The notes under the pieces were generated by a model. That model saw only the letters and a program-made list of their open reading frames with translations, searched no databases and was not told the origin of the DNA. A stretch of DNA of 64,000 bases from a virus. This document shows positions 2,506-64,000 of the stretch, in pieces. A program made the translations under genes and the position numbers. Location of the stretch: IMG/VR virus record IMGVR_UViG_3300042975_000098; one strand, given 5' to 3'. Position 1 is the stretch's first letter; every line of letters begins with the position of its first letter.

Positions 2506-2576
2506 CGGGCGCCGCACGTTAGATTCCCGTAGGCGTTCATGATATTCGTGAGGGCAGAGGCGAGAGGAGCAGTGAT

Positions 2577-3251
2577 TTGAACATCGAGAAACGGCTTGAC
2601 GATGGGTCGACCATCATGTCGGTCGCCATACCAGAGTTCCTTGCTTGCGTGGATTATGCCATCATAGACAAGACGAAGCGCTGGTCGTACTCGGACATGC
2701 TGGTCGACGCGGAGAAACTCGCCGGGCCGCAGACGCTCAAGGGGTACAAGAGCCTGATCGATCAGAAGCTGTTCGGCATCGACGCCGACGGCTACCCCGT
2801 CATCGAGGTCGCGGCCCGTCAGCTGGTGTGGCTCACGTCATCCATTCGCAATCATGATGTCATCGTCAACATCAAGGTGGCGGTGGACCACCGGCGCATG
2901 ACGTTCGTGTTCCTCCACGACAAGAGCTCCTGGGTGCTGTACTGGAAGTCGAAGACGGTGTACAGGTTCATCTCCGGTCTCATGGTGGAAAGCCCCGGCA
3001 TGGCGCTTCACCGCAGCATCATCCATGTGCTCGACAAGGCCAAAGTCGACAAGGTGTCCGTCGCGTTCATCGTGAAGAACGACATGGGCCGCGATCTTTC
3101 ATCGACGGTCATCGCAAGCAACGAGTACGGCGAGTACGTGGAGCAGGAACCCGACCCTATGTTCGTGTTCGATGCGCGCGCCCCGTGGCCCGTGCATTAT
3201 TCCCGGTACTCGATACTCGATAGGTTCGATGACATTCTCAAGGGGGTGTAG
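2577..3251 (+). CDS. Hypothetical protein
   Basis: 224-aa ORF with TTG start after an AGGAG SD, typical codon bias, abutting the next gene. Confidence 0.7.
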   Translation: MNIEKRLDDGSTIMSVAIPEFLACVDYAIIDKTKRWSYSDMLVDAEKLAGPQTLKGYKSLIDQKLFGIDADGYPVIEVAARQLVWLTSSIRNHDVIVNIKVAVDHRRMTFVFLHDKSSWVLYWKSKTVYRFISGLMVESPGMALHRSIIHVLDKAKVDKVSVAFIVKNDMGRDLSSTVIASNEYGEYVEQEPDPMFVFDARAPWPVHYSRYSILDRFDDILKGV

Positions 3252-3253
3252 TC

Positions 3254-5506: not shown

Positions 5507-5532
5507 GCCGCCGGACTGGTATCATATGAAGC

Positions 5533-5997
5533 ATGAGAATGTCTAAGCGTTATAAGTGGATGGTGTTCGCCTTCGACCAGGGCGACATATCGTCGCGGCC
5601 GCCGCTGGCGGAGTTCAGGGCGGAGCTTCGCGCATGGGGGTACTCGGGTCGTGTCGATGCGGAGACCAAGGATGACGTGATCCTGTTCATGCGCGAACAG
5701 GTGTCGAAACGCATGTACTACGATTACAGCGGCCATGTGGACTTCGCGTCAGGGAGGTACTGCTCGGTGCAGATCCCCATGGTCGGGTTCACCGAGTACG
5801 GAGACGGGGCCAGATTCCGCCTGACCAAGGATGGCATGGTGCTCGACAAGGATGGCGGCTCCTACGATGACGTCCGGCGGCAGATCGCGGGCATCATCGC
5901 CGAGTATTCGTCCACGGCTCTCAGATACTCGGCGGGCGGCGTGGCCGAATCGTCGATATTGCGCCTACGTGATAACAAGACAGGAACTCATCGGTAG
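5533..5997 (+). CDS. Hypothetical protein
   Basis: 154-aa ORF with ATG 7 nt after GGTATCAT (leaderless geometry). Confidence 0.65.
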   Translation: MRMSKRYKWMVFAFDQGDISSRPPLAEFRAELRAWGYSGRVDAETKDDVILFMREQVSKRMYYDYSGHVDFASGRYCSVQIPMVGFTEYGDGARFRLTKDGMVLDKDGGSYDDVRRQIAGIIAEYSSTALRYSAGGVAESSILRLRDNKTGTHR

Positions 5998-6265
5998 GAT
6001 ATCGAAGACCACCGCCCTCCCCAAGGGACTTGTGAGCGAGGTGCTTGACGCGCTCGTCGACGTCGCGGACGATGAGGTCGCGTCGTCGATGGAGTTCCAG
6101 GTGCCCGGCATGTTCGTCATCAAGAGCAAGACCGTGCCCGAGAGGGAGACTGTTGACGTGAACGACCGTTCCCGCAAGGTGACGTTGCCGCGCGTCGAGA
6201 CGATATACCCGAAGCTCGCCCCGTCCTTCATCCTACGCTTCAAGGACGCCCGCCGGCGCCGCTGA
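5969..6265 (+). CDS. HU/IHF-family DNA-binding protein
   Basis: MITRQELIGRISKTTALPKGLVSEVLDAL...FQVPGMFVIK...PKLAPSFILRFK fits the HU fold. The GTG start at 5969 is 8 nt after GATATT. Confidence 0.8.
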   Translation: MITRQELIGRISKTTALPKGLVSEVLDALVDVADDEVASSMEFQVPGMFVIKSKTVPERETVDVNDRSRKVTLPRVETIYPKLAPSFILRFKDARRRR

Positions 6266-6283
6266 CGGCGATATTCGGTTGGC

Positions 6284-6844: not shown

Positions 6845-6904
6845 TTTCCATCGTCCGCGCCGCCCACGCGATATTCCTATAACGGTGGGACTCGTGAAGG
6901 GGAG

Positions 6905-9900
6905 GTGCTCGTGAACGTCGCTTATGCTGGCCGGCGACCCGTCATCGGCTCGTACCGGCCGCGGACGATCGTCCGCCGCGTGGTCGCATCGATCATGATC
7001 GTCGTGTTCCTGCTGACCGGCGTGATCGTCTCCGCGTCCGCGGCGTTGGCTGATGACGATTGTTCGCCCGGTGATTCCAACCCCGTGTACAAGCAGTTCA
7101 AGAAGGCGGCGTGCCAGGGAATTCACTCGCCGGACGGCTCCGACCCGCTCGACAAGGTGATGAGGAACGACCCGTCGAAGAATGACGAGTCGCTGGGCGT
7201 GGTCAGCCTCATCTACAATCGTATGCTCAACCCCGCGTACTACATCAACTCCGGGGTGAACGCTGGCGACGCCGACTCGTGGAAGGGTCATTGCGCGGCG
7301 TTGGATTCGCCGCCGACGTTATCGAACAACAACTGCGACGTGCCGGGGATACTCACCGAGGCCATCCAGGACGTGGCGAACGTCATCGAGCCATCGGGTA
7401 TCACCAGCGGGCAGAAGGACGTGGCGAAGACTCCGCTTGGGCTCGGCATCGCCACGTCGCTGCTTCCGACCGACGACGTGCCCGCCAAGGCGGAGGACCG
7501 CACGTACAAGTACACCGGGCTTGAGGACTTCGGATACAACCTGCAATGGGTGAGGTACGCCGGCGAGTGGGATTACGTGAAGGTGTACACCGAGGATCGT
7601 CTCAAGACGTCCATGGGCCTCGGCGACGCGATATCCCTGCCGTTCAAATCGCTGTGGTCCGGCATGAAGTCCGGGGTCGGCGTCTACTCCGATCTCGTAT
7701 CGAAGCTTTCCAGCGGCGACTACTCCGGTCTCGCCGGGTCATTGCTTCACGCCAACCCGTTCGGCTCGGCCGCCGCCGCCGGCGACGCCATGAGCTACAC
7801 GTTCCTGAGCACCGTGCTCAATGGCTATGAGCAGACCGTGGTGAAGGACGGTTCGTGGTACCGTCCGGAGTTCGCCAACTCGACGGTGTATGGGTCGCGC
7901 TCGCTTACGGACATCGAGATTGCGGCCTTGTCCCGCGTGAACGTCGTCGACCTGTGGAACCAGAACATCGCGGGGGTGCTGGGCAAGTATGGCATCGACG
8001 TCGACGGTCTGAAACGACAGTCGGCGGCGCCGGCCGCTCCGGTGAAGGACGTCAAGAAGGACAAGGACGGCAATATCGTCAAGGACAAGGACGGCAAGGA
8101 TGTCACCGAGTACGAGCCGTGGTCGAAGTGGAAGTCCGAAAACCAGAAGCAGATCGACTGGGGGAAGGCCAACCTGAACGTCGACGCGGGCAAGTATGAC
8201 GACTCGGCCGGTGATGCGCTCGACAAGTACAACGCGCTGAAGACCGAGTGGTCCAAGGCAGCCGACTCATGGGTGGAGGCGCAGTCCAAGGCGCAGGAGG
8301 ACCAGAACATGCCCTCCATCCTGTCGGATATGGGAACGCTCATCGGCGGCGCGACGTCGACGTTGCAGCAGTCCGCGTCGAATCCGTCGTCGGCCCTGTA
8401 CTGCGCCGATGACGAGAACCAGCCGGTCGGCTCCGCCAGCAACGCCATCGTGAAGTCGGCCGTCTCCAAGGGGCTGCGCGACCCCGGCAAGGAGGCGTTC
8501 GACGCGGATGGGAACTGGGCGTGCGGCGGCTCACCGCGCCCGACCATCGTCGGCGGGCTGTTGGGCTCCGCCGGCGACGAGCAGCAGAAGGCCTCCAAGG
8601 ACACGAGACGCACCGCATGGGGCGGGTTCAACATCATGGACACGCTGCTGTGGAACAAGTTCGATTGGCTCTCCCAGAAGATACTCGGCGCCAGCCAATG
8701 GCTGGCCATGCTGACGAACCAACTCATCGCCATGAGCTACCAGCCGATACTCACGCAGCTTGGTCTGAAGGCGCTGACCATCAAACTCGTCACGGCGTTC
8801 AAGGACACGATATACATGAACCTGCTGGTGCTGTTCATCGCCATCGCCGCGCTCATGATACTGCTGCGGTTCACGAAGGGCGAGTGGACCGCGAGCTTCG
8901 GCCAGATCGGCGGTCTCGGGATGACGATCGGGCTCGGCATCATCGTGCTGCTGTCGCCCTCGGCCATCTTCACACTCGTTGATGACGCGCCATCGATGCT
9001 CGAACGCGCGGGCATGGCCACGATACTCCAGCCGTCCGCGAACGATGCCGTCTGCAGTGCGACGGGAACGGCGAAGGGCACCATATCGGTCGGCGATTAC
9101 GTCGACCTGTTCGGCAAGGACACCGGTTTCAACCCTGATTCCACAGTGCGGACCATGCAGTGCGACGTGTGGAAGGCGTTCGTCCTCAACCCATGGGCCT
9201 TCGGCCAGTTCGGAACCAACATCGACAACCTGTACGCCGACGGCCACGCCGGCGAGGGCGATTCCGGCGCATCGGATATGAAGACCAGCACCGACGTCCG
9301 GAAGATCGTGGGCGACGCCGCGGTCAACATGGGCGACGGGAAGATCGTCAACAACTGGGGGATCTACCAGTTGTCGCATGAGCTGTCCGGATCGTCGACG
9401 ACCGTGGACGCGACGGCGACGAACGGCGTCATCGACAAGGACCTGTACCGGCTCGTCGATCTCCAGGCCGGGCCGGATAACGCGGCCGGTCGCACCACGA
9501 AGTACTTCGAGGCTTGGAAGGGCTCGACGGCATCGCGCATGCTCGTGGCGATCGTGGCGCTGGCGTCGAACGTCATGGCGCTTATCGGACTTGGCGGTCT
9601 GGCTCTGCGCAAGATCGAGTACACGGTGCTCATGTGCCTGTTCCTCATGATCCTGCCGTTCATGCTGCTCATCGGTCTGCTGCCCGGGAACAGCAGGATG
9701 AAGCTCAAGTCGTACGGCTGGGAGATTCTCGGGCTGGTGCTCAAGCGCGTGTTCTCGGTGATCATCCTCACCGTTGGCATCATGGTGGTGCTCGGAGGGC
9801 AGACTGGCGACTCGGACTTCTTCACCCAGTCGTTGGCGACGATGGCGCTCGCGGGCGTGGTGATGATCTACGGGCCGAAGCTTCTTGGGCTCATGTCATC

Positions 9901-11527: not shown

Positions 11528-11544
11528 TGCGATATTCACCGGGC

Positions 11545-14022
11545 ATGGGTATCGCATCGTATGGCCGCGCCGCGGGGCGCTCATACCGTCGCGTGCCCGT
11601 ATGGGCTCGCTCGCTCGTCGTGCTCCTGCTCATGGCGGTGCTTGCCCCGCTGGCGGTGGCGCTGGCCGCTTCGGCGAACGACGCCCGCGCCGGCAGCATC
11701 GTCCAGTACGTGCTGTGCTCATGGGAGGACCCCAACGACAAGAAGGCCATTCCCGTGGTCAAGACGGTGTACGAGATCACGCAGACGGAGGACCTCCAGT
11801 ACCAGTTGTTCTCGAAGTCGGCGATCGGCGCGTCCGCGGCCGACCCCGGGTACGACATCCCGTCGATGCTGGCCATGTCCGATTACGCGAAGAACAACCT
11901 CGACATCGTGAACTCCGGCAACAAGACCGCCAGGAAGTACACGCCGTACGATCTGTACGGTTATGCCGGGATGAACTTCACGAACTACCAGGGCGAGTGG
12001 AACTGGCTGAAGGTGTATTACTGCACGTCCGATAACAAGGGAACCGGAGAGGATAAGGCCCCGGAGGATCTCAAGCTTAACCTCTACTATCAGAACCGCA
12101 AGCGACCCTTGGACAACTGGGCCTCGCGAGCGGCGTCGCAGGACCCCCGCGTCCGGCAGCGCACGAACAACCTGTACGCGAGCAACATGTCGCTTGACAT
12201 CGCGAACATCATGTTCTGGGTGACGAAGCTGGTGACCGCGTTCTGCACCTCGCTGATGGCGTTGTCGTTCTCGAACATCGTGGATAAGATGGGACTCATC
12301 GGCGCCATGAAGCCCATCATGACGAACCTGTTCTCCGGGCTGTTCTGGCCGCTGATGTTCATCATGATGGTCATGACAGCGGTCACGCTCATCAGCATGG
12401 GCCTTATCAAACGCCAGTACCGGCAGGCGCTCGGTGCGTTCATCAAGGCGCTGGCCTGCATGGCCGGCGGCATCTTCATCTCCATGTACCCGATGCTCTT
12501 CCTATCGCTGCCGAACGACGTCGGTCTGCTCGGCCAGTACCTCGTCATGAGCGGCCTGAGCAACACCGCGAACGTGTCCGGCGACGACTTCTGCTCCACG
12601 GACACCACGGAGGGCGGGTTCAAGTCCGTGAGCCTTGACGTGGTGCGTAACGGCCGCATCGACGACGAGGCGATAACGAACGCGCTGTCATCGGCGGCTG
12701 ACGCCTCGTCTCGGGCCATGACGTGCTCGTACTGGAAGCTCTTCGCGCTGACCCCGTACTCGCTCGCACAGTACGGTTCCTCGTATGACACGCTGTACGC
12801 GAAGGGGAAGGCGCCGGCCGGCTCCACCGAACTGGGGAACAAGAACACCTACCCGGGTCTCGCCGCGGTGCCGGTCGGCAACGACAAGACGATCAACAAC
12901 TGGCTGATCTACCAGTTGAGCGCCCAGAACGTGGCGCATGTGCCCAGCGCCATATCGGACGCCTCAACCGGCGCGATAACGAAGCCGTCGAAACCGTACT
13001 CGAACGTCGACCAGTACGCACGTCAGAACAAGATGGTGAACAACGTGTACGGCGACTGGTACCGAACCGTGGACGCGCTGTCGAACTACGATGTCGACGG
13101 GTCGAACAACAAGACGAAGGATTCGGCGGCCACGACGAACCAGTGGACCATGTGGATCGGCAATGCGCAGGGCCAGCGCATGATGGTGGCGATGCTGTCG
13201 ATCCTCGTGGCCGTGGTCGGCACCATGGGTCCGATCGTCATGGGCGCCACGGTGGTCGTGGCCGCGTTCGCGTGCGTGCTCATCATGGCGTTCGCGCCGC
13301 TGGCGCTCACGTTCGGCATGTGGGCCGGTCGCGGTCAGGAGATCCTCAAGGGGTGGTGGCAGCTTCTCATCGAGAGCATCGTCAAGCGGGTGGTGCTCGG
13401 TCTCGTGTACATGGTCATGCTGGTGCTCGATCTCATCATCATGCGTGGCATCGGCGGTCTGGGCGATTATCTGAAATCGGCTATCATCGTATCATTGCTG
13501 TCATACGTCATCGTGAAGAACCGGTCGGTCATCGTCAGGCTGTTCACCAGTTCCGTGGGCGGCTCGTTCTCGGCGACGAGGAACCGCATCGGCGCCACCA
13601 TCGGCAAGCACGGTCACGGCGCGGTGAATGGGGTTCGCAACGTCGGGGTCGGCGCGGTCGGCGGCATGCGCAACCATCTTGGCTCGAACGCGTTCAAGTC
13701 GACGGTGAAGGGAGCCGGCATCGGAGCGTCACGCACCGTGAAGAACAGCCTGTACACGTCCGACATGGGCCGCAAGATACTGCAGGCCGAGCAGATCACC
13801 AAGAACCAGAACGAGAAGGCGCGCCGCCGCAAGGAGGGGCTGTCCGATGACGATGACAACACGGATAACGGCACCTATGAGTACTTCCAGTGCGAGTCCT
13901 GCGCGAACATGGTGACCGCGGCGGACTATACGGACGTCTACGGTCACATCGTCTGCAACGACTGTTATGATTCCGGTGCTTGGCGAAGCGTACCGGGAGC
14001 GGACAGATGGGGTAGGCCGTAG
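11545..14022 (+). CDS. VirB6/TrbL-like conjugation membrane protein, paralog 3, with C-terminal CxxC...CxxC
   Basis: CSYWKLFALTPYSLAQYG, NWLIYQL, GRGQEILKGW and C-terminal CESC...CNDC. ATG 11545 is 8 nt after GATATT (alternative start 11527). Confidence 0.7.
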   Translation: MGIASYGRAAGRSYRRVPVWARSLVVLLLMAVLAPLAVALAASANDARAGSIVQYVLCSWEDPNDKKAIPVVKTVYEITQTEDLQYQLFSKSAIGASAADPGYDIPSMLAMSDYAKNNLDIVNSGNKTARKYTPYDLYGYAGMNFTNYQGEWNWLKVYYCTSDNKGTGEDKAPEDLKLNLYYQNRKRPLDNWASRAASQDPRVRQRTNNLYASNMSLDIANIMFWVTKLVTAFCTSLMALSFSNIVDKMGLIGAMKPIMTNLFSGLFWPLMFIMMVMTAVTLISMGLIKRQYRQALGAFIKALACMAGGIFISMYPMLFLSLPNDVGLLGQYLVMSGLSNTANVSGDDFCSTDTTEGGFKSVSLDVVRNGRIDDEAITNALSSAADASSRAMTCSYWKLFALTPYSLAQYGSSYDTLYAKGKAPAGSTELGNKNTYPGLAAVPVGNDKTINNWLIYQLSAQNVAHVPSAISDASTGAITKPSKPYSNVDQYARQNKMVNNVYGDWYRTVDALSNYDVDGSNNKTKDSAATTNQWTMWIGNAQGQRMMVAMLSILVAVVGTMGPIVMGATVVVAAFACVLIMAFAPLALTFGMWAGRGQEILKGWWQLLIESIVKRVVLGLVYMVMLVLDLIIMRGIGGLGDYLKSAIIVSLLSYVIVKNRSVIVRLFTSSVGGSFSATRNRIGATIGKHGHGAVNGVRNVGVGAVGGMRNHLGSNAFKSTVKGAGIGASRTVKNSLYTSDMGRKILQAEQITKNQNEKARRRKEGLSDDDDNTDNGTYEYFQCESCANMVTAADYTDVYGHIVCNDCYDSGAWRSVPGADRWGRP

Positions 14023-14115
14023 CATGACCGGTCGCGTTACGGCGTTGCCCGGCTGTCGATCCGCTCGCGGGGCGTGATCGGTCATCATCGATTCCATACG
14101 CGATATTCGTGTTCC

Positions 14116-15318: not shown

Positions 15319-15325
15319 GCTCCTG

Positions 15326-15448
15326 CGTCGATTACGCTCATACGATAAGCAAACGCTTGCCGTGTGAGCGTATTTTTCATGCGGCGTCGGAAAAACGGCG
15401 TTTTCGATGAGGGTATCACAAAACGTCGAAAACGCCGCATACGTGGCT
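15326..15448. repeat. Palindromic intergenic repeat, copy A (hairpin plus T5, then a second inverted repeat)
   Basis: TACGCTCA...TGAGCGTA TTTTT and GGCGTTTTCGA...TCGAAAACGCC. Homologous to 46044-46166. Confidence 0.85.
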
Positions 15449-15482
15449 TACAGCACGTTTACGACCCGGTGGCCGTGCGACC

Positions 15483-15490
15483 GGTATAAT
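15483..15490 (+). promoter_or_regulatory. GGTATAAT -10 promoter, class 1 (representative; TATAAT also starts at 17789, 30971, 32378, 34370, 35058, 41460, 48881, 50048, 54477)
   Basis: Perfect sigma70/SigA -10 hexamer preceded by GG at 10 gene boundaries in a high-GC background. Six copies have a start codon 6-7 nt downstream. Confidence 0.85.
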
Positions 15491-15496
15491 GCTCGC

Positions 15497-19045: not shown

Positions 19046-20953
19046 ATGATGGCCATTACGAAACCGGATTACGAGCGTCTTGAGGACGTCTTCCCGTCGT
19101 TCGACGCGGGCGACGGGCAACGGGGTCTCGATGACATACCCCCGGAGTTCGCGAGTCTTGTCCGGATCATGAGCAGGTCGTTGGATCACGTGAACCGGGT
19201 ACACTCGATCATGGTGAGCGGTTCGCCGCTCACGGGGAAGACGTTTCTGATCCGCTCGTTCGCCGCCGCGCTCGCCGACCTACCGTCCACGTTCGCCACC
19301 CGTCGCGTCCGGACGATCTCGCCGGACGCCAAGGACCAGGACGTCATGGCCATGGCGCGCATCCTCGGCGGGCATGACGCGAAGGACATCGTGTACACCA
19401 CCGATTACCGTGATGCGGTCATGGTCATGGAGGCGAACCGCTCGGTGTCCGTCATTCTCGAGATACAATCCGACCAAGCGCTCGGCTCACCCGCCATGAA
19501 CGATCGCGGCATCATGTCGAGCTTCGATGTCGTGGACCTCGACGGGCTGGATATGACCTGGGGTTCGTTCGTCCATGAACTACAGACCGTGAACCGCACG
19601 CAGTACGAGCCCAAGTACCACATGAGGGTGGACGATCGCGACGTCGCCCGGTTCGCAAGGGCGGCGTGGCGCGCGGGCGTGCTGGATGCCTCGGATGAGG
19701 ATTGGAAGCGCAAGATCCCGCGACGGGGCGACTCCATATCGTTCCCGATCGGCATCGCCGTCGACCTCCTCGAGACGGTGGAGCTCCGCATGACCGAGAC
19801 CGGCCCGGGCGCATCCATGCGCCGTCTGGTCACGGATGCCGCCGATGACACGCTGGCGCTCGGCAGCGACTACTCGGACGTGAACCACATCATGGGACTG
19901 GATCGACTGCTCGCCGAGGGCGGAGAGTTCGAGGCCGATGACGAGGGCGTCGACGATTCCGATGCGGATTCGGAGCCGGTCATCCACCCGTACTCGGACA
20001 TAACCACGCTCCCGGATCGCCTCCATGACCACATCGTGGGGCAGGACGGCATCGTTGACCGGATCAGCGACGCGCTCGCCATCGACGCCGCCGGACTGCG
20101 GACGAAGCCCGGCCCCATCGCCTCGTTCGTCTTCCAGGGACCTTCCGGCGTCGGCAAGACGGAACTCGCACGCGTGCTGGCGGAGGAGGTATTCGCCGCG
20201 CCGGTACAGTTGATCCGGCTGGACATGTCCGAGTATGCGGATGAATCCTCGCTGAGCAAACTCATCGGCTCGGCGCCCGGTCTCGTCCAATCCGAGGACG
20301 GCGGCAGGCTGACGAACGCCATCAAGCAGCACCCGCAGTGCGTGCTGCTGCTCGATGAGGCGGAGAAGGCGCATCACACCGTGTGGAACACGTTCCTGCA
20401 GGTGCTTGACAGCGGAGTGCTGACGGACGCCCGCGGCATGACCGTCGATTTCAGCCATGTCATCGTGATACTGACGACCAACCTCGGCAATAACGAAGCC
20501 CTGCGCCCCAAGGCGGGGTTCGGCTCGCAGGGCGGGGACCATGAGTCGATGACCTCGTTCTTCAAGGAGGCGCTTCGCCGTTACTTCCTCCCCGAGTTCA
20601 TAGGCAGGCTCGACTCGGTGTTCGTGTTCGGCAGGCTCGACCACGAGGAGCTTCGGCGCATCGTCCGCATGCAGCTGGACAGGCTGCGCGGCGCTATCCA
20701 TGATGGCCATCGTTCGCTGACGATAACCATTGATGACGATGACGCCATGATCGACTGGCTTCTCGATCAGGCCGATTCGGACAGGTTCGGCGCGCGCGGC
20801 GTCCAGAACGTGATTCGCAGGCGCGTGGCGCTCCCCGTGTCGCGTTGGATCATATCCCATGAGAGCGACGCGGACGCGCGGGCGGTGACGGTCGCCTACG
20901 AATCCGGCAGTAACGATATTGTCATGACCGACAATGGAATCAAGGGGGCATGA
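19046..20953 (+). CDS. ClpA/ClpB-family AAA+ ATPase (intact D2, degenerate D1)
   Basis: IVGQD, GPSGVGKT, IRLDMSEY, LLDEAEKAH, PEFIGRLD and FGARGV, with a remnant N-terminal Walker A GSPLTGKT. Confidence 0.88.
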   Translation: MMAITKPDYERLEDVFPSFDAGDGQRGLDDIPPEFASLVRIMSRSLDHVNRVHSIMVSGSPLTGKTFLIRSFAAALADLPSTFATRRVRTISPDAKDQDVMAMARILGGHDAKDIVYTTDYRDAVMVMEANRSVSVILEIQSDQALGSPAMNDRGIMSSFDVVDLDGLDMTWGSFVHELQTVNRTQYEPKYHMRVDDRDVARFARAAWRAGVLDASDEDWKRKIPRRGDSISFPIGIAVDLLETVELRMTETGPGASMRRLVTDAADDTLALGSDYSDVNHIMGLDRLLAEGGEFEADDEGVDDSDADSEPVIHPYSDITTLPDRLHDHIVGQDGIVDRISDALAIDAAGLRTKPGPIASFVFQGPSGVGKTELARVLAEEVFAAPVQLIRLDMSEYADESSLSKLIGSAPGLVQSEDGGRLTNAIKQHPQCVLLLDEAEKAHHTVWNTFLQVLDSGVLTDARGMTVDFSHVIVILTTNLGNNEALRPKAGFGSQGGDHESMTSFFKEALRRYFLPEFIGRLDSVFVFGRLDHEELRRIVRMQLDRLRGAIHDGHRSLTITIDDDDAMIDWLLDQADSDRFGARGVQNVIRRRVALPVSRWIISHESDADARAVTVAYESGSNDIVMTDNGIKGA

Positions 20954-23199: not shown

Positions 23200-24182
23200 G
23201 ACGATGGCTTCATGGGCTGCTGAACGATCACGGCAGGGTACTCGCCATCATGACCGCCGCGCTCATCGTCATCGAGACCGGCGCGGTGTACTACGGTTCG
23301 GCCCAATGGTTCATCCCGCCACTGGTGTACGCGGCCGCCGTCATCGTCATCGCGCTGGGCGGCCGCGCGCGACTCGTGGGCAAGATGGCGTTCTGCGTCA
23401 TCGGCGTGGTGATGCTGGCGGCGTTCTCGGTGATGGCCGGCACGGCCTACTCGTCATCATCCACGATCGGCAGTTCATGGGGGCTGTCGGTGATCGCCGG
23501 GTGGCTGCTCGCGATGGTCCTCCCGTGCTTCCTGATCATCACGCTCGACGCATGGTGGCTGCCCATCGTCGGCGCGTTGCTGGCGTTCGTCATCTCGTAC
23601 GCGCTGATGCCGTTCGGAACCACGGTCGTCATCGTCACGTCGCTGGCTGTACCGGTCGTGCTGTCGATGATAGCAGGTTCGCTCGTCCCCGCGCTGGTCC
23701 GCAGCCGGCATCGACCGCTGGTCCTCGGTTCGGATGCGCTGCCCATTCACGGCAGGGACATGACGCTTGGCCGCCATCGCGGCATGACGGTAATCGAGTC
23801 TGACGGGTACGGTTTCGCGCTCATCCCGATTCGCATGGATCGAGGGTTCGCCGTCGACGAGAAGGGCCGCGTGTCATATCGCGGTCGTAACGCCTACGGT
23901 TTCCTCGACTACTGGGCGCGCCGGTCCGTGCGGCGGGCGAACGCGAACGTTCTCCCCGTCTTCGTCGACATGGATGACGTGAATGAGGCGACGCACCGTC
24001 GCCCCCGTCTCATGTCGGTGGGCGGCCACGCCATCGGCATGGCGTCGCGCGGCGTCACGGAGAAAGGGCTGTCCGGCCTGACGGCCGGCGGTTCCCTCCT
24101 CGTGCGTCTGAGCGATCGCGAGCGCCGCCGACTTGGTTTTGCGATATTGCATGACGACTTGAGAAAGGGAAACCATGTCTGA
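23196..24182 (+). CDS. Hypothetical polytopic membrane protein
   Basis: ATG 23196 is coupled to the upstream stop; about 6 TM helices followed by a soluble domain. Confidence 0.7.
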   Translation: MRRWLHGLLNDHGRVLAIMTAALIVIETGAVYYGSAQWFIPPLVYAAAVIVIALGGRARLVGKMAFCVIGVVMLAAFSVMAGTAYSSSSTIGSSWGLSVIAGWLLAMVLPCFLIITLDAWWLPIVGALLAFVISYALMPFGTTVVIVTSLAVPVVLSMIAGSLVPALVRSRHRPLVLGSDALPIHGRDMTLGRHRGMTVIESDGYGFALIPIRMDRGFAVDEKGRVSYRGRNAYGFLDYWARRSVRRANANVLPVFVDMDDVNEATHRRPRLMSVGGHAIGMASRGVTEKGLSGLTAGGSLLVRLSDRERRRLGFAILHDDLRKGNHV

Positions 24183-25075: not shown

Positions 25076-25082
25076 CGATATT
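25076..25082 (+). promoter_or_regulatory. (C/T)GATATT putative promoter motif, class 2 (representative; GATATT also starts at 2541, 5955, 6270, 6870, 11531, 14102, 20915, 24143, 26584, 28733, 43497, 45046, 49883, 53289, 63960)
   Basis: 16 copies at gene boundaries; seven have an in-frame start codon exactly 8 nt downstream. Confidence 0.75.
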
Positions 25083-26539: not shown

Positions 26540-26641
26540 GCCGGGCATCACGCATCGGTGCCGGAAACAGTTAGATGAACGTCGATATTACCATGTCGTT
26601 GTCTTAACGGCGACGGGTGGATTCTAACGGAAGGCAGAGAA

Positions 26642-28717: not shown

Positions 28718-28773
28718 AATACCGCCGTTGGCGATATTCCGTCGCAGGATGAAATTGACGGAATGGAGCTGGA

Positions 28774-42710: not shown

Positions 42711-42711
42711 C

Positions 42712-43491: not shown

Positions 43492-43510
43492 CCGATGATA
43501 TTCCCGTGCC

Positions 43511-45034: not shown

Positions 45035-45059
45035 CGGCCACTGACGATATTCCGCAGGC

Positions 45060-46034: not shown

Positions 46035-46043
46035 GCGGCGCTA

Positions 46044-46166
46044 CGTCGATTACGTTCGCACGGCAAGCATTCGCTTATCATATGAGCGTATTTTTCGTAC
46101 GACGTCGAAAAAACGGCGTTTTCGATGACGACATCACGAAAACGCGATCCGGCGTTCTGCGTGGCT
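46044..46166. repeat. Palindromic intergenic repeat, copy B
   Basis: CGTCGATTACG...TGAGCGTATTTTTC...AAAAACGGCGTTTTCGATGA shared with 15326-15448. Confidence 0.85.
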
Positions 46167-47438: not shown

Positions 47439-47445
47439 TCGCGCC

Positions 47446-48930: not shown

Positions 48931-49884
48931 GTGATGATGGCAGATACGTTCATGAGGACCCCGTTCGTCTCGCATGATCAGCCGGATGCGGATGGCGTCC
49001 GCGCGGAGGTCATGGTGCAGACCGGCGTGGCCATGGTCGCGTCGGTGGACAGCAATGGCAAGAACGCCAAGGTGGAGCTGAAGGCCGATAACCAGAAGTA
49101 CACGGTGAAGACGTGGATGACCCCCGGCAACAAGGCGTTCGACATTCTCGATGACGCCTATAAGAACAACAAGCCCATCAACGTCCGCGTCGAGCAGCGC
49201 AGGCTGAAGAGGAACCGCGACACGAAGGAGCCGATTCTTCGCTCGACCCCCATCAGGGAGCTTCTCGTGGACCCCACGACCCATAAGCAGACGAACGACC
49301 TGGCCCGCCGCAACGCGGTGAAGACGCTGGTCGGCGTCGCTCCCGTGGACGGCGACATGGAGTTCACCGGCGAGGAGGTGACGCTGCCATCCGAGGACCC
49401 GCAGGAGGGTTCGCACGCCGGCGTCATGTCATCGAACCCGGTGACCTCGACGCCGCCCGCCGGCTACCATTCCGATGGCTATGAGGCCCAGCCGTGGAAG
49501 GGCACGAACAACGATGGCACCGTGAACGCCGGCGCGTATGGCGTGGGCGCGGCCGCCGGGTTCTACTTCCTCGCGTTGGAGCAGAACGCGAAGATCGGCG
49601 ACGCGCTGGCGAAGACGTTGGCGTCGAAGCTGATGGTGGTGTGCGATTACATGCAGAAGAAGGTGTATGACGGCCGTCAGGAGTACGCCGAGCGGAACGC
49701 CGCATCGCATCTTCGCGCGCGCGAGGTGGTCACCGAGGTCATCAAGAGCCGTCTGCAGATCACCGATGAGGTCCTTGCCTCCAGCGAGTCGCTGGGCGAG
49801 TGGCTGAAGAAGGTTCTCGCCGCCTCCGAGGAGATATACCAGTGGGCTTACGAGGATTACGGGAAGTCCATCGCCAACCGGTGA
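48931..49884 (+). CDS. Hypothetical protein
   Basis: 317 aa with AAGGAG SD and its own GGTATAAT promoter. Confidence 0.75.
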   Translation: MMMADTFMRTPFVSHDQPDADGVRAEVMVQTGVAMVASVDSNGKNAKVELKADNQKYTVKTWMTPGNKAFDILDDAYKNNKPINVRVEQRRLKRNRDTKEPILRSTPIRELLVDPTTHKQTNDLARRNAVKTLVGVAPVDGDMEFTGEEVTLPSEDPQEGSHAGVMSSNPVTSTPPAGYHSDGYEAQPWKGTNNDGTVNAGAYGVGAAAGFYFLALEQNAKIGDALAKTLASKLMVVCDYMQKKVYDGRQEYAERNAASHLRAREVVTEVIKSRLQITDEVLASSESLGEWLKKVLAASEEIYQWAYEDYGKSIANR

Positions 49885-49896
49885 TATTGTCATGCT

Positions 49897-49989
49897 GTCC
49901 AGTCGATGAGGATTACGAAGGTCCGCGCTCAACGGAGTCCGAGACCATAGTGCCTCACTATGAATGACCTTACTCATCGGCTGGATTTT
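49897..49989 (+). ncRNA. Candidate structured non-coding RNA (~90 nt)
   Basis: Begins exactly 8 nt after GATATT. It has a 14-bp terminal stem GTCCAGTCGATGAG/CTCATCGGCTGGAT, inner stem AAGGTC/GACCTT, hairpin CATAGTG-CCT-CACTATG, ends in TTTT and has no credible ORF. Confidence 0.6.
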
Positions 49990-49995
49990 CATTAC

Positions 49996-50035
49996 CAGTT
50001 CGGGGTCGGCGAATCACATCGTCGGCCCCGAACTG
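49996..50035 (+). terminator. 17-bp stem-loop
   Basis: CAGTTCGGGGTCGGCGA / TCGTCGGCCCCGAACTG, fully paired with two G-U pairs on the + strand. Confidence 0.7.
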
Positions 50036-50060
50036 TATGCGTGACGGTATAATGCCGGTC

Positions 50061-51068
50061 ATGACAAGACTCGTGACGATCAACTACGAAACGCTTTCCT
50101 ACGCCGAGCAGCGGGCATCCGACATCATGGACGAATGGGGCATCGACCGAGCGTCGCGCAGGCACACCGATGACGTCGTCAAGCGCCCCGGCCGCACGCT
50201 GTTCGGCCCGCCCATGGCGTGCGTGCTCACCATCAGGGACAAGTCGATGCTTGAGGCCGCCACCAGCGCCATGGCGGCGGAGGGAGCGGCGTTCGCGGGC
50301 GCCGGCGTGGTCATGCTCGCGTCGTTCCCCGAGAACACGAAGGCCATGAAGTCGTTCACGGCCGCCGTGCGCGAACTCGGCGGGGTGGCGGAGACGCCCA
50401 AGAAGAACCGCGACGGCGAGATAACCGCGATCATGTCGACCATACACCTCAACGCGAGGTCCGCCGAGTTCCTGCTATCCTACGTTGGCGGCGATTACGA
50501 GATACTGCTGCCGTTGGCGAAGTCGATAGCCGTGCTGCCGCGCGCCGAGCAGGAGGCGCTGACGGTCGACGACCTCATCGTCAGGCTTCCCGACCATCCG
50601 GGGGAGATAACGGTGTGGGGCGATTTCCGCAAGCATGAGCAGGGGCTTGACGATCTGATCATGGCCGGCGATCGCGGCGCCGCGCTCGCCCGTCTTCGTC
50701 GTATACTCGCGGGCGGCACGCAGCCGCTTGTCGTACTCGCGTTCCTCCGCAACCGGTTCGCCGCGATGTACCAGTTGAAGACGATGCTGGCCGCCGGTGT
50801 CGACGCCAGCACCGCGGCGGTCACGCTTGGCCTTCCCGACCCGGCATACAGCGGCAAGGGCCGTAAGGACCCGAAGACCGGTAAGAGCGGGTACCCCACC
50901 TTGAAGACGATACGCGCGCTCGGCGGCGCATCGGAGAGCGCGCTGACCAATGACATGAGGGAGTTCGTCAGGATCTCGGAGATCATGAAGGGGCAGCACC
51001 CCACCATACGCATGGATGCCGCTGATGCCCTGATCCACCTTGTGGCCACCATCACCATGGAAGGATGA
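50061..51068 (+). CDS. holA: DNA polymerase III delta subunit-like (clamp loader), divergent
   Basis: ~335 aa; RTLFGPP, AEFLLSYVGGD, GDRGAALARLRRIL...PLVVLAFL and C-terminal MKG follow the actinobacterial HolA pattern. Confidence 0.6.
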   Translation: MTRLVTINYETLSYAEQRASDIMDEWGIDRASRRHTDDVVKRPGRTLFGPPMACVLTIRDKSMLEAATSAMAAEGAAFAGAGVVMLASFPENTKAMKSFTAAVRELGGVAETPKKNRDGEITAIMSTIHLNARSAEFLLSYVGGDYEILLPLAKSIAVLPRAEQEALTVDDLIVRLPDHPGEITVWGDFRKHEQGLDDLIMAGDRGAALARLRRILAGGTQPLVVLAFLRNRFAAMYQLKTMLAAGVDASTAAVTLGLPDPAYSGKGRKDPKTGKSGYPTLKTIRALGGASESALTNDMREFVRISEIMKGQHPTIRMDAADALIHLVATITMEG

Positions 51069-51069
51069 C

Positions 51070-53286: not shown

Positions 53287-53331
53287 TCGATATTCCGACG
53301 ACCTGATAACCAGCAGGGGAGGCGACCGGGC

Positions 53332-54334: not shown

Positions 54335-54510
54335 AACGTGCCGCTCAGACGCGCGTTAAGGGGTCATAGGCGGCATTTGCCGTCATACGGGTGTAATCTC
54401 ACCGGCAGTGGCCGAAGGCACGCTGGCGCCCGCCAGCGAGCGATTCCGTTGTCGGTCTGGCGGCTTGGGTTTCTGGTATAATAAAATCACATGAAAGTAG
54501 AAGGAGCATT

Positions 54511-56649: not shown

Positions 56650-56693
56650 ACGACGTCGCCAGCGGTATGATGACAGCGGAGGCATAAACACAC

Positions 56694-59600: not shown

Positions 59601-60569
59601 GGAATCTCCGAGAAGCTGTCGGCCGATATCGTCGCGTACCGCCAGCGTCACGGCCGGTTCGCAAGCGTTGATGACTTCATGCGCAACGCGCCGGACGGAC
59701 TCATCAACGCGGCGACGCTGACCACGCTGGCGAACGTAGGCGCGTTCGACGGGCTGGGCGTGAACAGGCGCGCGCTCGCCACGTCGGCGGCCGAGGTCGT
59801 GGCGTTCTACAAGGACGTGTCGAGGAACGCGACCAGGGGGCAGCGCTCCATCTTCGACGTCATGGGGTCGAACGACCATGACGTGTACCAGTTCCCGGAC
59901 ATCGAGGACTGGTCGTTCATCGACAAGCTGAAGATGGAGAAGACGATCGCCGGCACGTACGTGTCCGCCCGTCCGCTGCAGAACGTGGGCCGCGGCATGT
60001 CCTACCTGCGGGCGGCGTCGAACATCCCCATCATCGCCGCCGACGATCTGAGCAGGGCCACCGGCCGCGGCACGTTCCGCACGCTCGCGTTCCTCACCGG
60101 CATCGAACGCAGGACGAGCCGTAAGGGAACGCCGTTCTACCGTCTGAACATCGATGGTGATGAGACGTCGACCCCGGCCATGATATTCGGCGGTCAGGTT
60201 GATGCTATCGAGCAGTCCGACGCGAACCTCGTCGACGGGTCTCTCTACCTGGTGTCCGGGAAGTACTACAACGGGTACAACGACCGCATGACCTACTCGA
60301 TCGAATCGGTGACGCCGATGGAGCTCGCACGGGACGGCCGCATGCCGCTATGGGTGCGACTCACCGAGGCCAGCGCCGAAGCCGCCGAGAAGATCATCAA
60401 GCGCGAACTCGCCCGCCACCCCGGTGACCTGCCGGTGTTCTTCTCCGTGAAGCTTCACGATGGCACCATCGACAACCACTATAGCGGCCTGTCGATAAGC
60501 GATGACGATGAATCGATCATGGAACTAGAGGACGCCATCGGTAGCAAGCGCATGGGCGTTTGGGAATGA
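56694..60569 (+). CDS. dnaE: DNA polymerase III alpha subunit
   Basis: LHNHSEYSLLDG, TDHG, GRGSAGGS, FERFLNPER, PDVDTDF, KMDFL and YAFNKAHS. Confidence 0.96.
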   Translation: MDGFVNLHNHSEYSLLDGFSHVDEYIHRAWSLGQDAVGLTDHGNLHGVYQLVSRALASSHVADGNGRPQEPVYVKPIPGVEAYMAPLNPLGAKVRKPVYYGTPSQRHMDVSARGSYLHLTLLAQNDTGWHNLIKLVTAGSTPETFRQHPRIDMDMLARYADGLIAFTGCPSGEIATRFRLGQDDKAYEYARRMKDLFPGRYYVEVMNHRMKSDIERVVLGKLRRMSDDLSIPLVVTNDCHYAMPEDAKHQEEMLAAQSNASMLDAATYDGGPRFAFDSHQYYMKSADDMLKLFPESEWPNAVADAIAIRDGVHVNPDDDMSGRIADGLAAAVMTGSGVADDVVSLVSMLGERMTGEGILRRCADAGVAEGGADASTVGRRALALFTPDDGIDIKLRHDLRPVVPVPDGETEESMFQKQINAGFKRKYVDEKADPAIMVEAKKRIAHEYPVFANNNFIQYMLVVADYINKAREMGVSVGRGRGSAGGSIIAYLMDIVRVDPIKNNLIFERFLNPERLSPPDVDTDFASSRKNDVLQYVQRKYGNDKISNVIVFTTFKPRTAWSDMARIYRIPIYESNRVKGLIPEEKDMTLASLFDRNSKFYDKAADFREAVKAYPQVLEAALAIEGRVKTTTIHPCAVIMADVPISDVAPLAWRPKPKDPWGDWYTQWTYQECEALGLIKMDFLSLIDLDIISWTVANIKKTRGIDISMEDVVKNMDDKPTYDMLGRGDTLGVFQMGSSNFQDLMIRMKPTRFDDISAGVALYRPGPMDMGAHIAYADAKNGRIKPELLDPSFKDTAIDRILAPTYQKIVYQEQVMQISQQAAGFTMGQADVLRKAMGHKKPETMAAMRTKFVNGCVANGYERGAVEKLWGFIEEFSAYAFNKAHSAAYGQVSYMTAWLKCHYPAEFMSAFMSAHIKEKSKLSEFVDDCGAIGLKVSGIDINESEGKMTPVRKTAPDSPDIVFGLEGLNGISEKLSADIVAYRQRHGRFASVDDFMRNAPDGLINAATLTTLANVGAFDGLGVNRRALATSAAEVVAFYKDVSRNATRGQRSIFDVMGSNDHDVYQFPDIEDWSFIDKLKMEKTIAGTYVSARPLQNVGRGMSYLRAASNIPIIAADDLSRATGRGTFRTLAFLTGIERRTSRKGTPFYRLNIDGDETSTPAMIFGGQVDAIEQSDANLVDGSLYLVSGKYYNGYNDRMTYSIESVTPMELARDGRMPLWVRLTEASAEAAEKIIKRELARHPGDLPVFFSVKLHDGTIDNHYSGLSISDDDESIMELEDAIGSKRMGVWE

Positions 60570-60576
60570 GGTTCAC

Positions 60577-62070: not shown

Positions 62071-62089
62071 TCCGTATATTGAACTGTGT

Positions 62090-63874
62090 ATGAGAACTAT
62101 TCTTGACGTCCCGTACATGGAGTCGATGGCCGCTCGCGCGGCCGGCGCCAGGTACGACGCGAAACTGAAGATCACCTATTACGATGGAGCGGCGCCGGCG
62201 GCGCTGGCACGCTGGCTCACCGATGACTACTCGTACTCGCGGTGGGTTGAGGATTCCATGAACGGGGCGGTACGCCCGGTGGCCATGTCGAGCACCGCGT
62301 TCACGCCAAAGCCCCATCAGGTCACCGCGGCGCATGCGATCGCCAGCGCGTGGGCCAAGGGTTCGCCCGGCTTCCTCATCGCCGATTCCACCGGTCTTGG
62401 CAAGACGCTCTCGGTCATCGCCGGCGTGTGCGCGATCGCCAGCGTCCGCGGGTGCTCGAGCGCGCGCCCGTTGAAGACGCTCATCGTCAGCCCGCTCGGC
62501 GCTAAGGGCGTGTGGTCGCAGACGTTGAAATCCTACCCGCCGTCATCGTGTCTTCGCCCGCTGATCATCAACTACCAGCAGTTGAACAAACTGGTGAAGC
62601 CGCCGACGGCTGAGATTCGGCAGCGTTCGCGGGCGAATAAGAGCGGCAGGATATCGACGCATACGAAGAACATGCTCGTGGCTCGCGACGGCACCATGAG
62701 AATACATTTCGACGTCATCGTGTTCGATGAGTCGCATTACCTGAAGAACTACGGTTCCAGCGCGGTGTCCATGCTAGCGGCCACCATCGGCGGGTTGAAC
62801 GCCGAGTATGTTCGCGGTAAATCACCGTTCATCGTGTACAGCACGGCCACACCGGCGTCCACGCCATTCCATTACGCGATCATGGCGCCCACGTTGTCCA
62901 TGCTGCTGAACCCGCGGCTGAAGCATCCGGTGACGCCGGTGAAATGGCCCGAGTTTCTGAAACGCGAGGGGTTCCACGTTCACAAGGCGAAAACATGGTC
63001 ATGGGCGACGGTGCCGTACTGGGGCGCGAAGAGCGATGACCCGAGGGCGGTGGAACGCTACCGCGCCGGCAAGACGAAAGCGGAGCGCGAGCGAAGAGAG
63101 GACTCGGAGCGTATCGGCAAGGCCTGGTCGAGCGAGGGCGCACCGTACATAGCGCGTGAGCCCACCGATCTGCGCGGCTGGCCCAAGCAGCCGGTGAACC
63201 CGTATTACATCTCGCCGACCGCCGACGATCGCGCGCGGTACGAGGAATCGTGGCTTGAGTTCCGGGCATGGCTGAAACTCAAGCGGGCTGGGCAGTCGAA
63301 CCCGCGCGACGGGCTGACGAAACGGCTGCGATTCCGTCAGAAGGCCTCGCTCATCAAGGCCCCCTACGTGGCCGAGCACGCCATCGAACTCGTGGAATCG
63401 GGCATGCAGGTGTTCATCGGCGTCCAGTTCCTCGATACGGTTCGCATCATGGAGCAGGCGCTCGCCAAGGCGCGGGTGTCGTTCGCCGACTGCACGGGAC
63501 TCAGTGATGACAAGCAGGCCGAGCGGCTGAGATTCCAGCGGGGCGAGGCGAAGGTCGTGTTGTGTACGGTCAAGGAGGCCATGTCCTTCCACGCCGGCGA
63601 GATACTGCCCGATGGCACCAGGGCATCCTCCGCACCGCGTATGACCATCATCGCCGACGTTCGCGAGAACCCGAACGATTGCGTCCAGCAGATGGGCAGG
63701 GCCCATAGGGACGGGCAGGAGTCGCCGTGCGAGTTCCCGTTGCTGCTGGGCACTGTCGACGAGAAGGTCATGGGGTCGTTCATCCGGTCGTGCGCGAACA
63801 TGAAGACCATGAAGGCCGACTCGGACCCCGAGTATCTCGACCGCATATTCCTTGGATCGGGCGGGCATCAATAA
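62090..63874 (+). CDS. Superfamily 2 (SNF2-like) helicase/ATPase
   Basis: PKPHQ, IADSTGLGKT, VFDESH, STATP, RFQRG and QQMGRAHRDGQ. Confidence 0.88.
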   Translation: MRTILDVPYMESMAARAAGARYDAKLKITYYDGAAPAALARWLTDDYSYSRWVEDSMNGAVRPVAMSSTAFTPKPHQVTAAHAIASAWAKGSPGFLIADSTGLGKTLSVIAGVCAIASVRGCSSARPLKTLIVSPLGAKGVWSQTLKSYPPSSCLRPLIINYQQLNKLVKPPTAEIRQRSRANKSGRISTHTKNMLVARDGTMRIHFDVIVFDESHYLKNYGSSAVSMLAATIGGLNAEYVRGKSPFIVYSTATPASTPFHYAIMAPTLSMLLNPRLKHPVTPVKWPEFLKREGFHVHKAKTWSWATVPYWGAKSDDPRAVERYRAGKTKAERERREDSERIGKAWSSEGAPYIAREPTDLRGWPKQPVNPYYISPTADDRARYEESWLEFRAWLKLKRAGQSNPRDGLTKRLRFRQKASLIKAPYVAEHAIELVESGMQVFIGVQFLDTVRIMEQALAKARVSFADCTGLSDDKQAERLRFQRGEAKVVLCTVKEAMSFHAGEILPDGTRASSAPRMTIIADVRENPNDCVQQMGRAHRDGQESPCEFPLLLGTVDEKVMGSFIRSCANMKTMKADSDPEYLDRIFLGSGGHQ

Positions 63875-64000
63875 GTGATCGCACAAGTTGTTAGATGGTG
63901 TTCCAGTGGGCATCCAGCCGGAGTTGGTCGCATGTCGTTGGGTAACTGGTAATCGACGTGATATTGGACGGTCGGACATGCTCACGTATGTTCATGTTTG

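Follow-up and report, generated by a model that had tools for sequence, protein, structure and literature searches.

The late promoters of phage T4 consist of the word TATAAATA, read by the phage sigma factor gp55 with gp33 and the sliding clamp, and the middle and late promoters of Thermus phage P23-45 have an extended -10 element and no -35. Mobile elements can also carry sigma factors with private regulons, such as SigN of B. subtilis pBS32, gp28 of SPO1 and the clostridial TcdR/UviA group; we know of none of this type that drives a leaderless regulon of conjugation and pilus genes. Mycobacteriophages of clusters A and K carry stoperators, 13-bp repressor sites at no fixed distance to starts, and start-associated sequences that include a Shine-Dalgarno (SD) sequence. 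The leaderless promoters of Actinobacteria, described in M. tuberculosis and C. glutamicum, place TANNNT 7-12 nt before the transcription start site (TSS) and have no -35 (PMC3898074, PMC3890552); in M. tuberculosis the TSS is a purine that follows a pyrimidine (PMC3898074). Here we consider a 64,000-nt stretch of DNA, the window, from the IMG/VR virus record IMGVR_UViG_3300042975_000098, in which the word GATATT stands eight bases before the starts of transfer, pilus and envelope genes. Judged by its placement and its retention in relatives this is a real, conserved, promoter-like signal. The sites it marks, class 2 in what follows, are probably an element-specific promoter class, a variant of the known leaderless kind with a -10 element only, and the comparisons below support their separation from a second set of sites, mostly GGTATAAT, which we call class 1.

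The GC content of the window is 60-64.5% in every 4-kb slice, approximately 63% overall, and each of its approximately 50 genes lies on the plus strand. Pfam matches reveal a transfer, pilus and envelope set (TrbL/VirB6-like, lysozyme, a class-A penicillin-binding protein (PBP) with PASTA domain, CpaF, TadB, and weak DivIVA-like and TcpC-like matches), a nucleoid and miscellaneous set (HU, GNAT, a ClpB-like ATPase, GmrSD, MoxR and a VWA protein) and a replication and recombination set (a KaiC/DnaB-like ATPase, SSB, a PD-(D/E)XK nuclease, DnaB, SbcD-like and SbcC-like proteins, a DNA polymerase III (Pol III) delta-like protein, GyrB-like, Pol III alpha and an SNF2 helicase). Possible markers of a conjugative element are the TrbL/VirB6 match, just below cut-off, the weak TcpC match, CpaF and TadB. 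No close DNA match to the window turned up when 25 kb of it were compared by megablast with collections of plasmids and phages.

GATATT occurs 17 times on the plus strand and once on the minus strand, so that 17 of 18 copies lie on the coding strand (Table 1). The raw number is not enriched, 18 against 12.9 ± 3.1 in shuffled sequence; the placement is the striking part. Non-coding DNA and stop codons, 2,960 nt in all, contain thirteen of the copies, where 0.46 would be expected and the most seen in 5,000 shuffles was 4. The reverse complement is absent from these 2,960 nt, and variants with one mismatch total 5 in the non-coding DNA as against the 13 exact copies. We reject the explanation that this reflects no more than an abundance of A and T between genes, since across 60 hexamers composed of the same bases the mean is 0.58 non-coding copies. 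Within 60 nt upstream of gene starts, 4.6% of the window, GATATT is the most enriched hexamer with 14 of the 17 copies (binomial p ~ 1e-16).

The spacing to the start codon was counted independently of gene calls, by taking any ATG or GTG that opens an open reading frame (ORF) of at least 60 amino acids (aa). The distance is exactly 8 nt in seven cases and no other distance from 0 to 20 nt is represented more than once. None of the seven start codons, ATG or GTG, is preceded by an SD sequence, and they sit 15-25 nt after the preceding gene in same-strand arrays. Eight further class-2 genes have a leader of 4-44 nt after the predicted +1, mostly with an SD, and one site is associated with a small RNA. 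The genes concerned are a 224-aa gene after VirB6, HU, GNAT, the 1,540-aa and 825-aa proteins, the DivIVA-like gene, four unknowns, the TcpC-like gene, a small membrane protein, CpaF, TadB and the gene after SbcC.

Conservation extends beyond the hexamer, to the pattern Y-GATATT-S-S-N3-G-N-C-purine. At the 17 sites the hexamer is preceded by C (12) or T (5) and followed mainly by C (11) or G (5). Close to the predicted +1 there is a G three bases upstream in 13 of 17, a C at -1 in 13 of 17 and a purine at +1 in 14 of 17, and these features are kept at the leadered sites also. No -35 is shared, with no position from -40 to -16 conserved above 9 of 17 sites, and canonical -35/-10 pairs in the 40-58 kb part of the window are if anything depleted, with 1 found against 4.5 expected.

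An earlier note on this DNA, based on its letters and a list of ORFs, had drawn attention to GATATT, and much of its description is borne out. All 17 of the positions that it listed hold the word on the plus strand, though the minus-strand copy was missing from its list. The seven SD-less starts that it placed exactly 8 nt downstream correspond to the spike in spacing, with the qualification that those at 11545 and 14116 have alternative in-frame starts upstream. It was correct in seeing no shared -35 and the enrichment over shuffled sequence that its proposal implied is present. Its statement that all listed copies stand at or before gene starts applies to most and fails at 49883, where there is a small RNA and no ORF. 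It had also remarked that no core replisome gene lies behind GATATT, which is so; those genes carry GGTATAAT instead.

Class 1, with the pattern GGTA(T/C)NAT, has 15 copies on the plus strand and one on the minus strand of the window. The sites stand 6-7 nt before ATG or GTG in seven cases, and the genes downstream include SSB, SbcD-like, GyrB and Pol III alpha. The two classes can be placed in a common frame by numbering the first base of the start codon as +1. The class-2 hexamer then occupies -14 to -9 and the class-1 arrangement, GGTATAAT-N6-ATG, falls into the same frame. Class 1 reads G-14 G-13 T A T A A T and class 2 reads G-14 A-13 T A T T C S. Common to both are G-14, the TAT of -12 to -10 and the spacing to +1; positions -13 and -9 to -7 differ.

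Three class-1 sites bear on gene calling. At 15483, 30969 and 50046 GGTATAAT stands 6-7 nt before an in-frame GTG at 15497 (PBP), ATG at 30984 (KaiC/DnaB-like) and ATG at 50061 (Pol III delta-like), respectively. These are probably the true leaderless starts, as read from motif and frame, and the annotated start codons would be corrected by the code. A start at ATG 30984 would abolish a gene overlap of 29 nt.

Relatives of the window were reached through homologs of CpaF and are metagenomic contigs of 170-494 kb. Scanning viral contigs with the CpaF alignment gave only one, G001 (IMGVR_UViG_3300044557_000292), and the scan of genome contigs gave no relative. G001 is complete at 419,707 bp with terminal repeats, has a GC content of 49.5% and is syntenic with nearly the whole window. 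The class-2 signal is kept in syntenic relatives of 45-53% GC. In L004, which is syntenic with the window, has 45% GC and a CpaF of approximately 52% aa identity, GATATT-N8-ATG is found at CpaF and TadB, and further copies of GATATT stand at the small-RNA locus and immediately beyond the stop codon of SbcC, although the flanking DNA cannot be aligned. Class 1 is also present in L004, as GGTATAAT or GGTATCAT, before SSB, the SbcD-like gene (Metallophos), the Pol III delta-like gene and one unnamed gene. L030 and L031 have CATATC, GATATC and AATATC at the N8 position before CpaF, TadB and MoxR, and ydjM of L116 starts at GATATT-N8-ATG. At the latter locus (L116 positions 8245-8300) an intrinsic terminator, an 11-bp stem with U-tract, abuts the GATATT on its upstream side.

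An unbiased scan of hexamers against spacing in G001 ranked ATATCT at a distance of 7 nt first (20 sites), followed by TGATAT at 9 nt (16 sites) and GATATC at 8 nt (15 sites); GGTACC at 9 nt emerged as a second class. The class-2 form of G001 is (T)(G/C)ATATCTT, or TGnTATCTT in the common frame, and the core that is invariant in the family is A-T-A-T at -13 to -10 with G or C before and a pyrimidine after. Among window-G001 orthologs, class-1 status is common to 9 of 13 against a background of 2 of 32 (p = 3.6e-5) and class-2 status to 8 of 12 against 8 of 33 (p = 0.012), a count in which the distance cap missed two further class-2 pairs, the TcpC-like and 1,540-aa proteins. On these figures orthologous genes keep their predicted promoter class between elements.

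The leaderless class-2 genes of G001 encode a TraG/VirD4 coupling protein, an FtsK+Hint fragment, CrgA, CpaF, two T2SSF (TadB/C) paralogs, a TcpC-like protein, MoxR, LemA, an ABC ATPase, YdjM, an EEP nuclease and the SNF2 ortholog. IMG/VR files G001 as a virus with terminal repeats, and this virus entry carries the coupling protein, the FtsK+Hint fragment, CrgA and Tad genes. Since a coupling protein is present and no HK97 capsid match was found with Pfam in G001, it looks like a conjugative plasmid-like element rather than a virus. CrgA, DivIVA and the PASTA PBP indicate that the host is probably an actinobacterium. We found nothing relevant in the literature on GATATT with leaderless promoters and no description of this family of elements.

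There is no ORF behind the GATATT at 49883, yet a predicted structured small RNA of approximately 95 nt begins at the base that follows N8, its 5' and 3' ends pairing in a stem of 14-16 bp. The 140 nt from 49897 have a minimum free energy of -70.8 kcal/mol (z = -7.3). Counterparts occur at 16508-16605 in L004 and 117571-117665 in G001, intergenic in both and with the motif at the same place. In the alignment of all three a closing stem of 16 bp runs from the predicted +1, a U-tract comes after it, and 13 pairs show compensatory changes. No Rfam family matches the RNA. Because a structured RNA begins at N8+1 where there is no ORF, the motif appears to mark an RNA 5' end and not a translation signal; a purely translational role is ruled out on the same evidence. 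A perfect 17-bp hairpin without U-tract (49996-50035) lies between the small RNA and the class-1 site of the Pol III delta-like gene.

How do these sites compare with those already described? Like the leaderless promoters of Actinobacteria they display a -10-type element at a fixed short distance, no conserved -35, a purine at +1 after a pyrimidine, AUG or GUG at +1 without SD and an S-R-N triplet before the hexamer. They differ in that the window hexamer, TATTCS, is without T-7, is invariant over 7-8 bases rather than degenerate, is tied to a functional class of genes and is kept across a family of mobile elements whatever the GC content. Set against TANNNT, the window has T-7 in 2 of 17 sites, and most G001 sites read TATCTT or TATCCT, which match. 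With respect to the extended -10 element, TG at -15/-14, G-14 is invariant in the window and -15 is always a pyrimidine (12 C, 5 T); many sites of G001 carry TGATATC, and CATATC accounts for 11. A promoter of the sigma-28/FliA/WhiG kind (TAAA-N15-GCCGATAA) was rejected, as only CGATA is in common and neither TAAA nor any other conserved -35 base is present, and so was a reader of that type, since the sigma factor of the family, described below, scores best with RpoD, RpoS and SigB models and FliA and WhiG rank far lower.

As with T4 late promoters, a scattered word with the character of a -10 alone marks one functional or temporal class of genes, with a factor of the element as putative reader, beside promoters of the host type. 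The sequence differs from TATAAATA, however, the only sigma factor found in G001 is RpoD/RpoS-like with regions 2-4, nothing points to a dependence on the clamp, and the setting looks like a conjugative element and not a lytic phage. A T4-type late promoter was rejected on the first two counts. In P23-45 an extended -10-type architecture without -35 defines a class of genes, as it may here, and a factor that binds RNA polymerase (RNAP) would be an alternative route to the same end; the phage factors gp39 and gp76, which redirect the host polymerase, are cited in PMC5312081. Unlike P23-45, this family has its own sigma factor. With the group of SigN, gp28 and TcdR it shares a sigma-70-family protein encoded by the mobile element itself, which may control its own gene and a private set; the members of that group are extracytoplasmic function (ECF)-like or highly reduced and use -35 elements, unlike the protein here. 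The resemblance to stoperators and start-associated sequences lies in short asymmetric words, oriented along transcription, that recur in the short intergenic gaps of an actinobacterial mobile genome. Class-2 sites, in contrast to stoperators, are at a fixed distance to an SD-less start that coincides with the predicted RNA 5' end.

The candidate reader is found in the relatives. G001 has a single Sigma70_r2 gene and elsewhere only weak helix-turn-helix matches; homologs are on giant contigs (262-491 kb), one contig of 58 kb and a few short fragments. In an exhaustive hidden Markov model search nine representatives score E <= 1e-59 and the next match 1e-39, so the family, of about ten representatives, stands some 20 orders of E-value apart. 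Best matches in PDB and NCBIfam are SigA, RpoD, RpoS and SigB, with alignment across regions 1.2-4.2. Sigma70_r2 scores 44.9-47 bits (cut-off 24) and TIGR02937 78.3 bits (cut-off 42.9), and with regions 2 and 4 both present and scores above cut-off the relatives' protein belongs to the sigma-70 superfamily; with the RpoD and RpoS equivalog models the family falls far short of the cut-offs. When metagenomes were scanned with the alignment of the family, one search pattern being generic, only generic sigma factors of 25-37% identity were returned.

Two residues of this family, an invariant histidine and an invariant glutamine, occupy the positions of Gln437 and Thr440 of sigma70. Gln437 and Thr440 face base pair -12, and the Q437H substitution alters specificity there (PMC2613000). 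By our reading of the alignment the region 3.0 residues that contact the TG of an extended -10 also appear to be replaced. In both G001 and L033 the sigma ATG lies 250-280 nt downstream of GATATC-N8 sites, the G001 site following a terminator, and a GyrA-YdjM-x-sigma-LigA neighbourhood is conserved among relatives. The one member on a 64% GC contig, L035, has GATAAT-N7-ATG, clearly neither class, and the start regions in short contigs L006 and L007 are uninformative. A subfamily with QRLGYK occurs with ATATC lineages and a subfamily with QRH..DI occurs with ATATT lineages. Taken together the class-2 reader is probably the elements' own sigma factor, an identity that we infer from the relatives. 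We note also that in G001 (283201-284320, L002) the sigma ORF is open for 72 codons upstream of the first ATG and that homologs have N-terminal extensions. A strong SD, AAGGAGAGGG, in this upstream part is followed by ATA and ATT codons only, and the sigma start codon of G001 may be non-canonical.

We hold with moderate confidence that YGATATTS is the core of a second promoter class on a giant conjugative plasmid-like element, with a sigma factor of the element as its reader. The promoter would comprise a -10-type element only, without -35, and would set the start of transcription 9 nt after the hexamer. At seven genes +1 would be the A or G of the start codon and the mRNA would be leaderless. 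Class 1 fits the housekeeping TANNNT consensus of Actinobacteria and would drive the replication and recombination genes; class 2 would drive dispersed transfer, pilus, envelope and nucleoid genes. The most likely reader would be the RpoD/RpoS-like sigma of the family, whose residues at the positions reading -12 are unlike those of sigma70, and because the sigma gene sits behind a class-2 site a self-reinforcing on-switch might result. SD-less starts would be translated well only from transcripts that begin there, which would tie translation to a gene's own promoter and not to read-through.

Several observations weigh against this reading. There is no sigma gene within the 64-kb window. The G001 motif, TGnTATCTT, is an ordinary extended -10, open to use by a housekeeping sigma, and 14 of the 17 window sites have C or G at -7. 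When the frame is taken as GATATT at -12 to -7, A-11 and T-7 are present in the window and T-7 is lost with GATATC in G001, such that no single frame yields a full TANNNT in all lineages. No N8 pattern was seen in L032, a more distant relative. In L003, a 98% relative, the TadB site (3188-3193) is GATCTT at an altered distance to ATG and the motif is missing; either natural variation of the promoter or, in a contig of 5x coverage, an error of assembly may account for this. A cascade would explain the class-2 site upstream of the sigma gene as well as autoregulation does, and the match of sigma subfamily to the last base of the motif (T or C) rests on two clades only.

The broader proposals of the earlier note are accordingly modified. 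It had envisaged a leaderless, non-canonical promoter-like signal; the signal at fixed distance is upheld by the spacing, the pyrimidine at -1 and purine at +1, the RNA at the predicted +1 and the conservation, but it is non-canonical in the branch of the window only, being an extended -10 in G001. An element-encoded sigma or RNAP-redirecting activator outside the window was anticipated, and a family-specific sigma does exist in relatives. The dispersed conjugation regulon is recognizable in the transfer, pilus and envelope genes and yet is wider than suggested, extending to HU, GNAT, DivIVA-like and the small RNA in the window and to MoxR, the SNF2 helicase, LemA and the ABC ATPase in G001. 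The analogy with T4 late promoters is apt in function only, as the candidate sigma resembles RpoD/RpoS and not gp55.

A more ambitious version of the proposal, offered tentatively and as less than an even prospect, is that elements of approximately 0.17-0.5 Mb run a private code of two words. The host-type GGTA..AT would serve replication, and (G/C)ATAT(T/C) would be read only by the elements' own RpoD-like sigma with its changed -12/-14 reading head. With the sigma behind its own type of promoter this would constitute a bistable transfer switch, most targets of which would have SD-less starts immune to read-through.

What else might explain the data? The alternative that survives best is that host RNAP with a housekeeping or group-2 sigma reads both classes, GATATT being an extended -10 variant of the form (S/T)GN-TAT... 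and its conservation the result of an overlapping operator for a repressor or activator of the element or of a deliberately weak, regulated promoter. The geometry of class 2 is indeed the same as that of class 1, the G001 form TGnTATCTT is TGNTANNNT, and transfer genes of conjugative elements are commonly under repressors. In M. tuberculosis, moreover, (G/C)(A/G)N precedes 49% of TANNNT promoters, with CGN in 45% of cases (PMC3898074), and CGA-TAT fits. We nevertheless regard this explanation as rather unlikely. Of the 17 window sites 15 lack T-7, and a housekeeping -10 is normally degenerate, which is hard to square with 13 exact against 5 one-mismatch copies in non-coding DNA. The motif is fixed across hosts of 45-63% GC, orthologs keep their class identity and the family retains a dedicated sigma with altered promoter-reading residues.

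A reversed cascade, in which host RNAP first reads class 2, the sigma gene included, and the element sigma then reads class 1 (GGTA..AT) for the replication genes, seems to us improbable. It would account for the region of 560 nt upstream of the G001 sigma gene, in which class 2 is represented and class 1 is not; class 1, too, is unusually invariant (GGTATAAT in the window, GGTACCAT in G001), and GG at -14/-13 lies where sigma regions 2.4 and 3.0 are altered. Against this, class 1 matches housekeeping TANNNT with A-11 and T-7 in every lineage, plasmid replication genes are needed at all times, which would suit a host sigma, and the class 2 of the window, without T-7, would be the poorer substrate for a host sigma. 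Finally, an endoribonuclease might recognize the motif in long same-strand transcripts and cut 8 nt downstream, generating both the small RNA's 5' end and mRNAs without leaders. Such a site is compatible with genes on one strand, with many sites that have no terminator in front and with a defined RNA 5' end at N8+1, but is very improbable given that class 2 has the same G-14, the same TAT (-12 to -10) and the same spacing to +1 as the class-1 TATAAT sites, that C at -1 with a purine at +1 is what initiation typically shows and that in L116 and G001 an intrinsic terminator directly before the motif leaves no upstream transcript to cut.

If transcription by a sigma factor of the element is the correct explanation, then an uncultured family of very large, apparently conjugative elements has a regulatory code that can be read from sequence alone. 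By this code the genes of the family, hundreds in number and for the most part without annotation, would be divided between a set for maintenance and one for transfer and envelope. It would also provide a compact, orthogonal pair of promoter and sigma factor for use in Actinobacteria and a case of leaderless translation insulating a regulon from read-through transcription. The natural histidine and glutamine at the positions of Gln437 and Thr440 represent a ready-made experiment on recognition of the -12 base pair.

Table 1. Positions of GATATT copies, class-1 sites and the small RNA in the window, with the corresponding sites in relatives.
Feature	Position	Strand	Downstream gene and context	Relatives
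Class-2 motif	2541..2546	+	predicted +1 2555; 22-nt SD leader to TTG 2577 (224-aa unknown, after VirB6/TrbL-like gene)	G001 ortholog with GATATC upstream
Class-2 motif	5955..5960	+	N8 to GTG 5969 (HU-like, 98 aa; Pfam HU match begins at residue 3); inside 3' end of gene 5533-5997	
Class-2 motif	6270..6275	+	N8 to ATG 6284 (GNAT acetyltransferase), earliest possible start of ORF	
Class-2 motif	6870..6875	+	21-nt leader with SD GGGGAGG to GTG 6905 (1,540-aa unknown)	
Class-2 motif	11531..11536	+	N8 to ATG 11545 (825-aa protein); alternative in-frame ATG 11527 overlaps upstream stop	G001 ortholog with motif and SD leader
Class-2 motif	14102..14107	+	N8 to ATG 14116 (weak DivIVA-like); alternative in-frame GTG 14074	G001 ortholog with GATATC and leader
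Class-2 motif	20915..20920	+	inside 3' end of ClpB-like gene; 21-nt SD leader to ATG 20950	
Class-2 motif	24143..24148	+	inside 3' end of preceding gene; 18-nt SD leader to ATG 24175 (216 aa)	G001 counterpart with GATATC 73 nt before aligned start
Class-2 motif	25077..25082	+	N8 to ATG 25091 (weak TcpC-like, 482 aa), earliest possible start	G001 ortholog begins at GATATC-N8-ATG
Class-2 motif	26584..26589	+	44-nt leader to ATG 26642 (106-aa membrane protein)	G001 with GATATC upstream
Class-2 motif	28733..28738	+	27-nt leader to TTG 28774 (217 aa)	G001 with GATATC upstream
Class-2 motif	43497..43502	+	N8 to ATG 43511 (CpaF/T2SSE ATPase); M1 invariant across 17 homologs	L004 GATATT; L030 and G001 CATATC
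Class-2 motif	45046..45051	+	N8 to ATG 45060 (TadB/T2SSF)	L004 GATATT; G001 and L031 GATATC
Class-2 motif	49883..49888	+	overlaps stop codon of gene 48931-49884; small RNA downstream, no ORF	
Class-2 motif	53289..53294	+	2 nt past SbcC stop; 29-nt SD leader to ATG 53332	L004 19876; G001 CATATC-N8-ATG at 121579
Class-2 motif	60182..60187	+	intragenic, Pol III alpha gene; C at -1, A at +1; possible internal promoter	
Class-2 motif	63960..63965	+	12 nt (not 8) before ATG 63978; predicted +1 63974, 4 nt upstream of that ATG; gene extends past window end	
GATATT copy	8072..8077	-	sole minus-strand copy, inside 1,540-aa gene; probably chance	
Small RNA, structured	49897..49990	+	starts at motif+N8; 14-bp closing stem then U-tract	
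Class-1 GGTA(T/C)NAT	5518, 15483, 17787, 30969, 32376, 34368, 35056, 36854, 41458, 48879, 50046, 54475, 56664	+	before replication/recombination genes	

Two further features of the window deserve mention. TATATT at 62075-62080 lies 9 nt before ATG 62090 of the SNF2 helicase, the G001 ortholog of which starts at GATATC-N8-ATG, and is possibly a class-2 site that has drifted. An intergenic element of approximately 90 nt is present in two copies, at 15319-15406 and 46035-46124, that are identical in 71 of 93 alignment columns. The copies occupy the gaps 3' of the DivIVA-like gene and 3' of TadB, each ends at an ATG, and each has a terminator-like hairpin, the loop of which differs between them, together with a second small hairpin.

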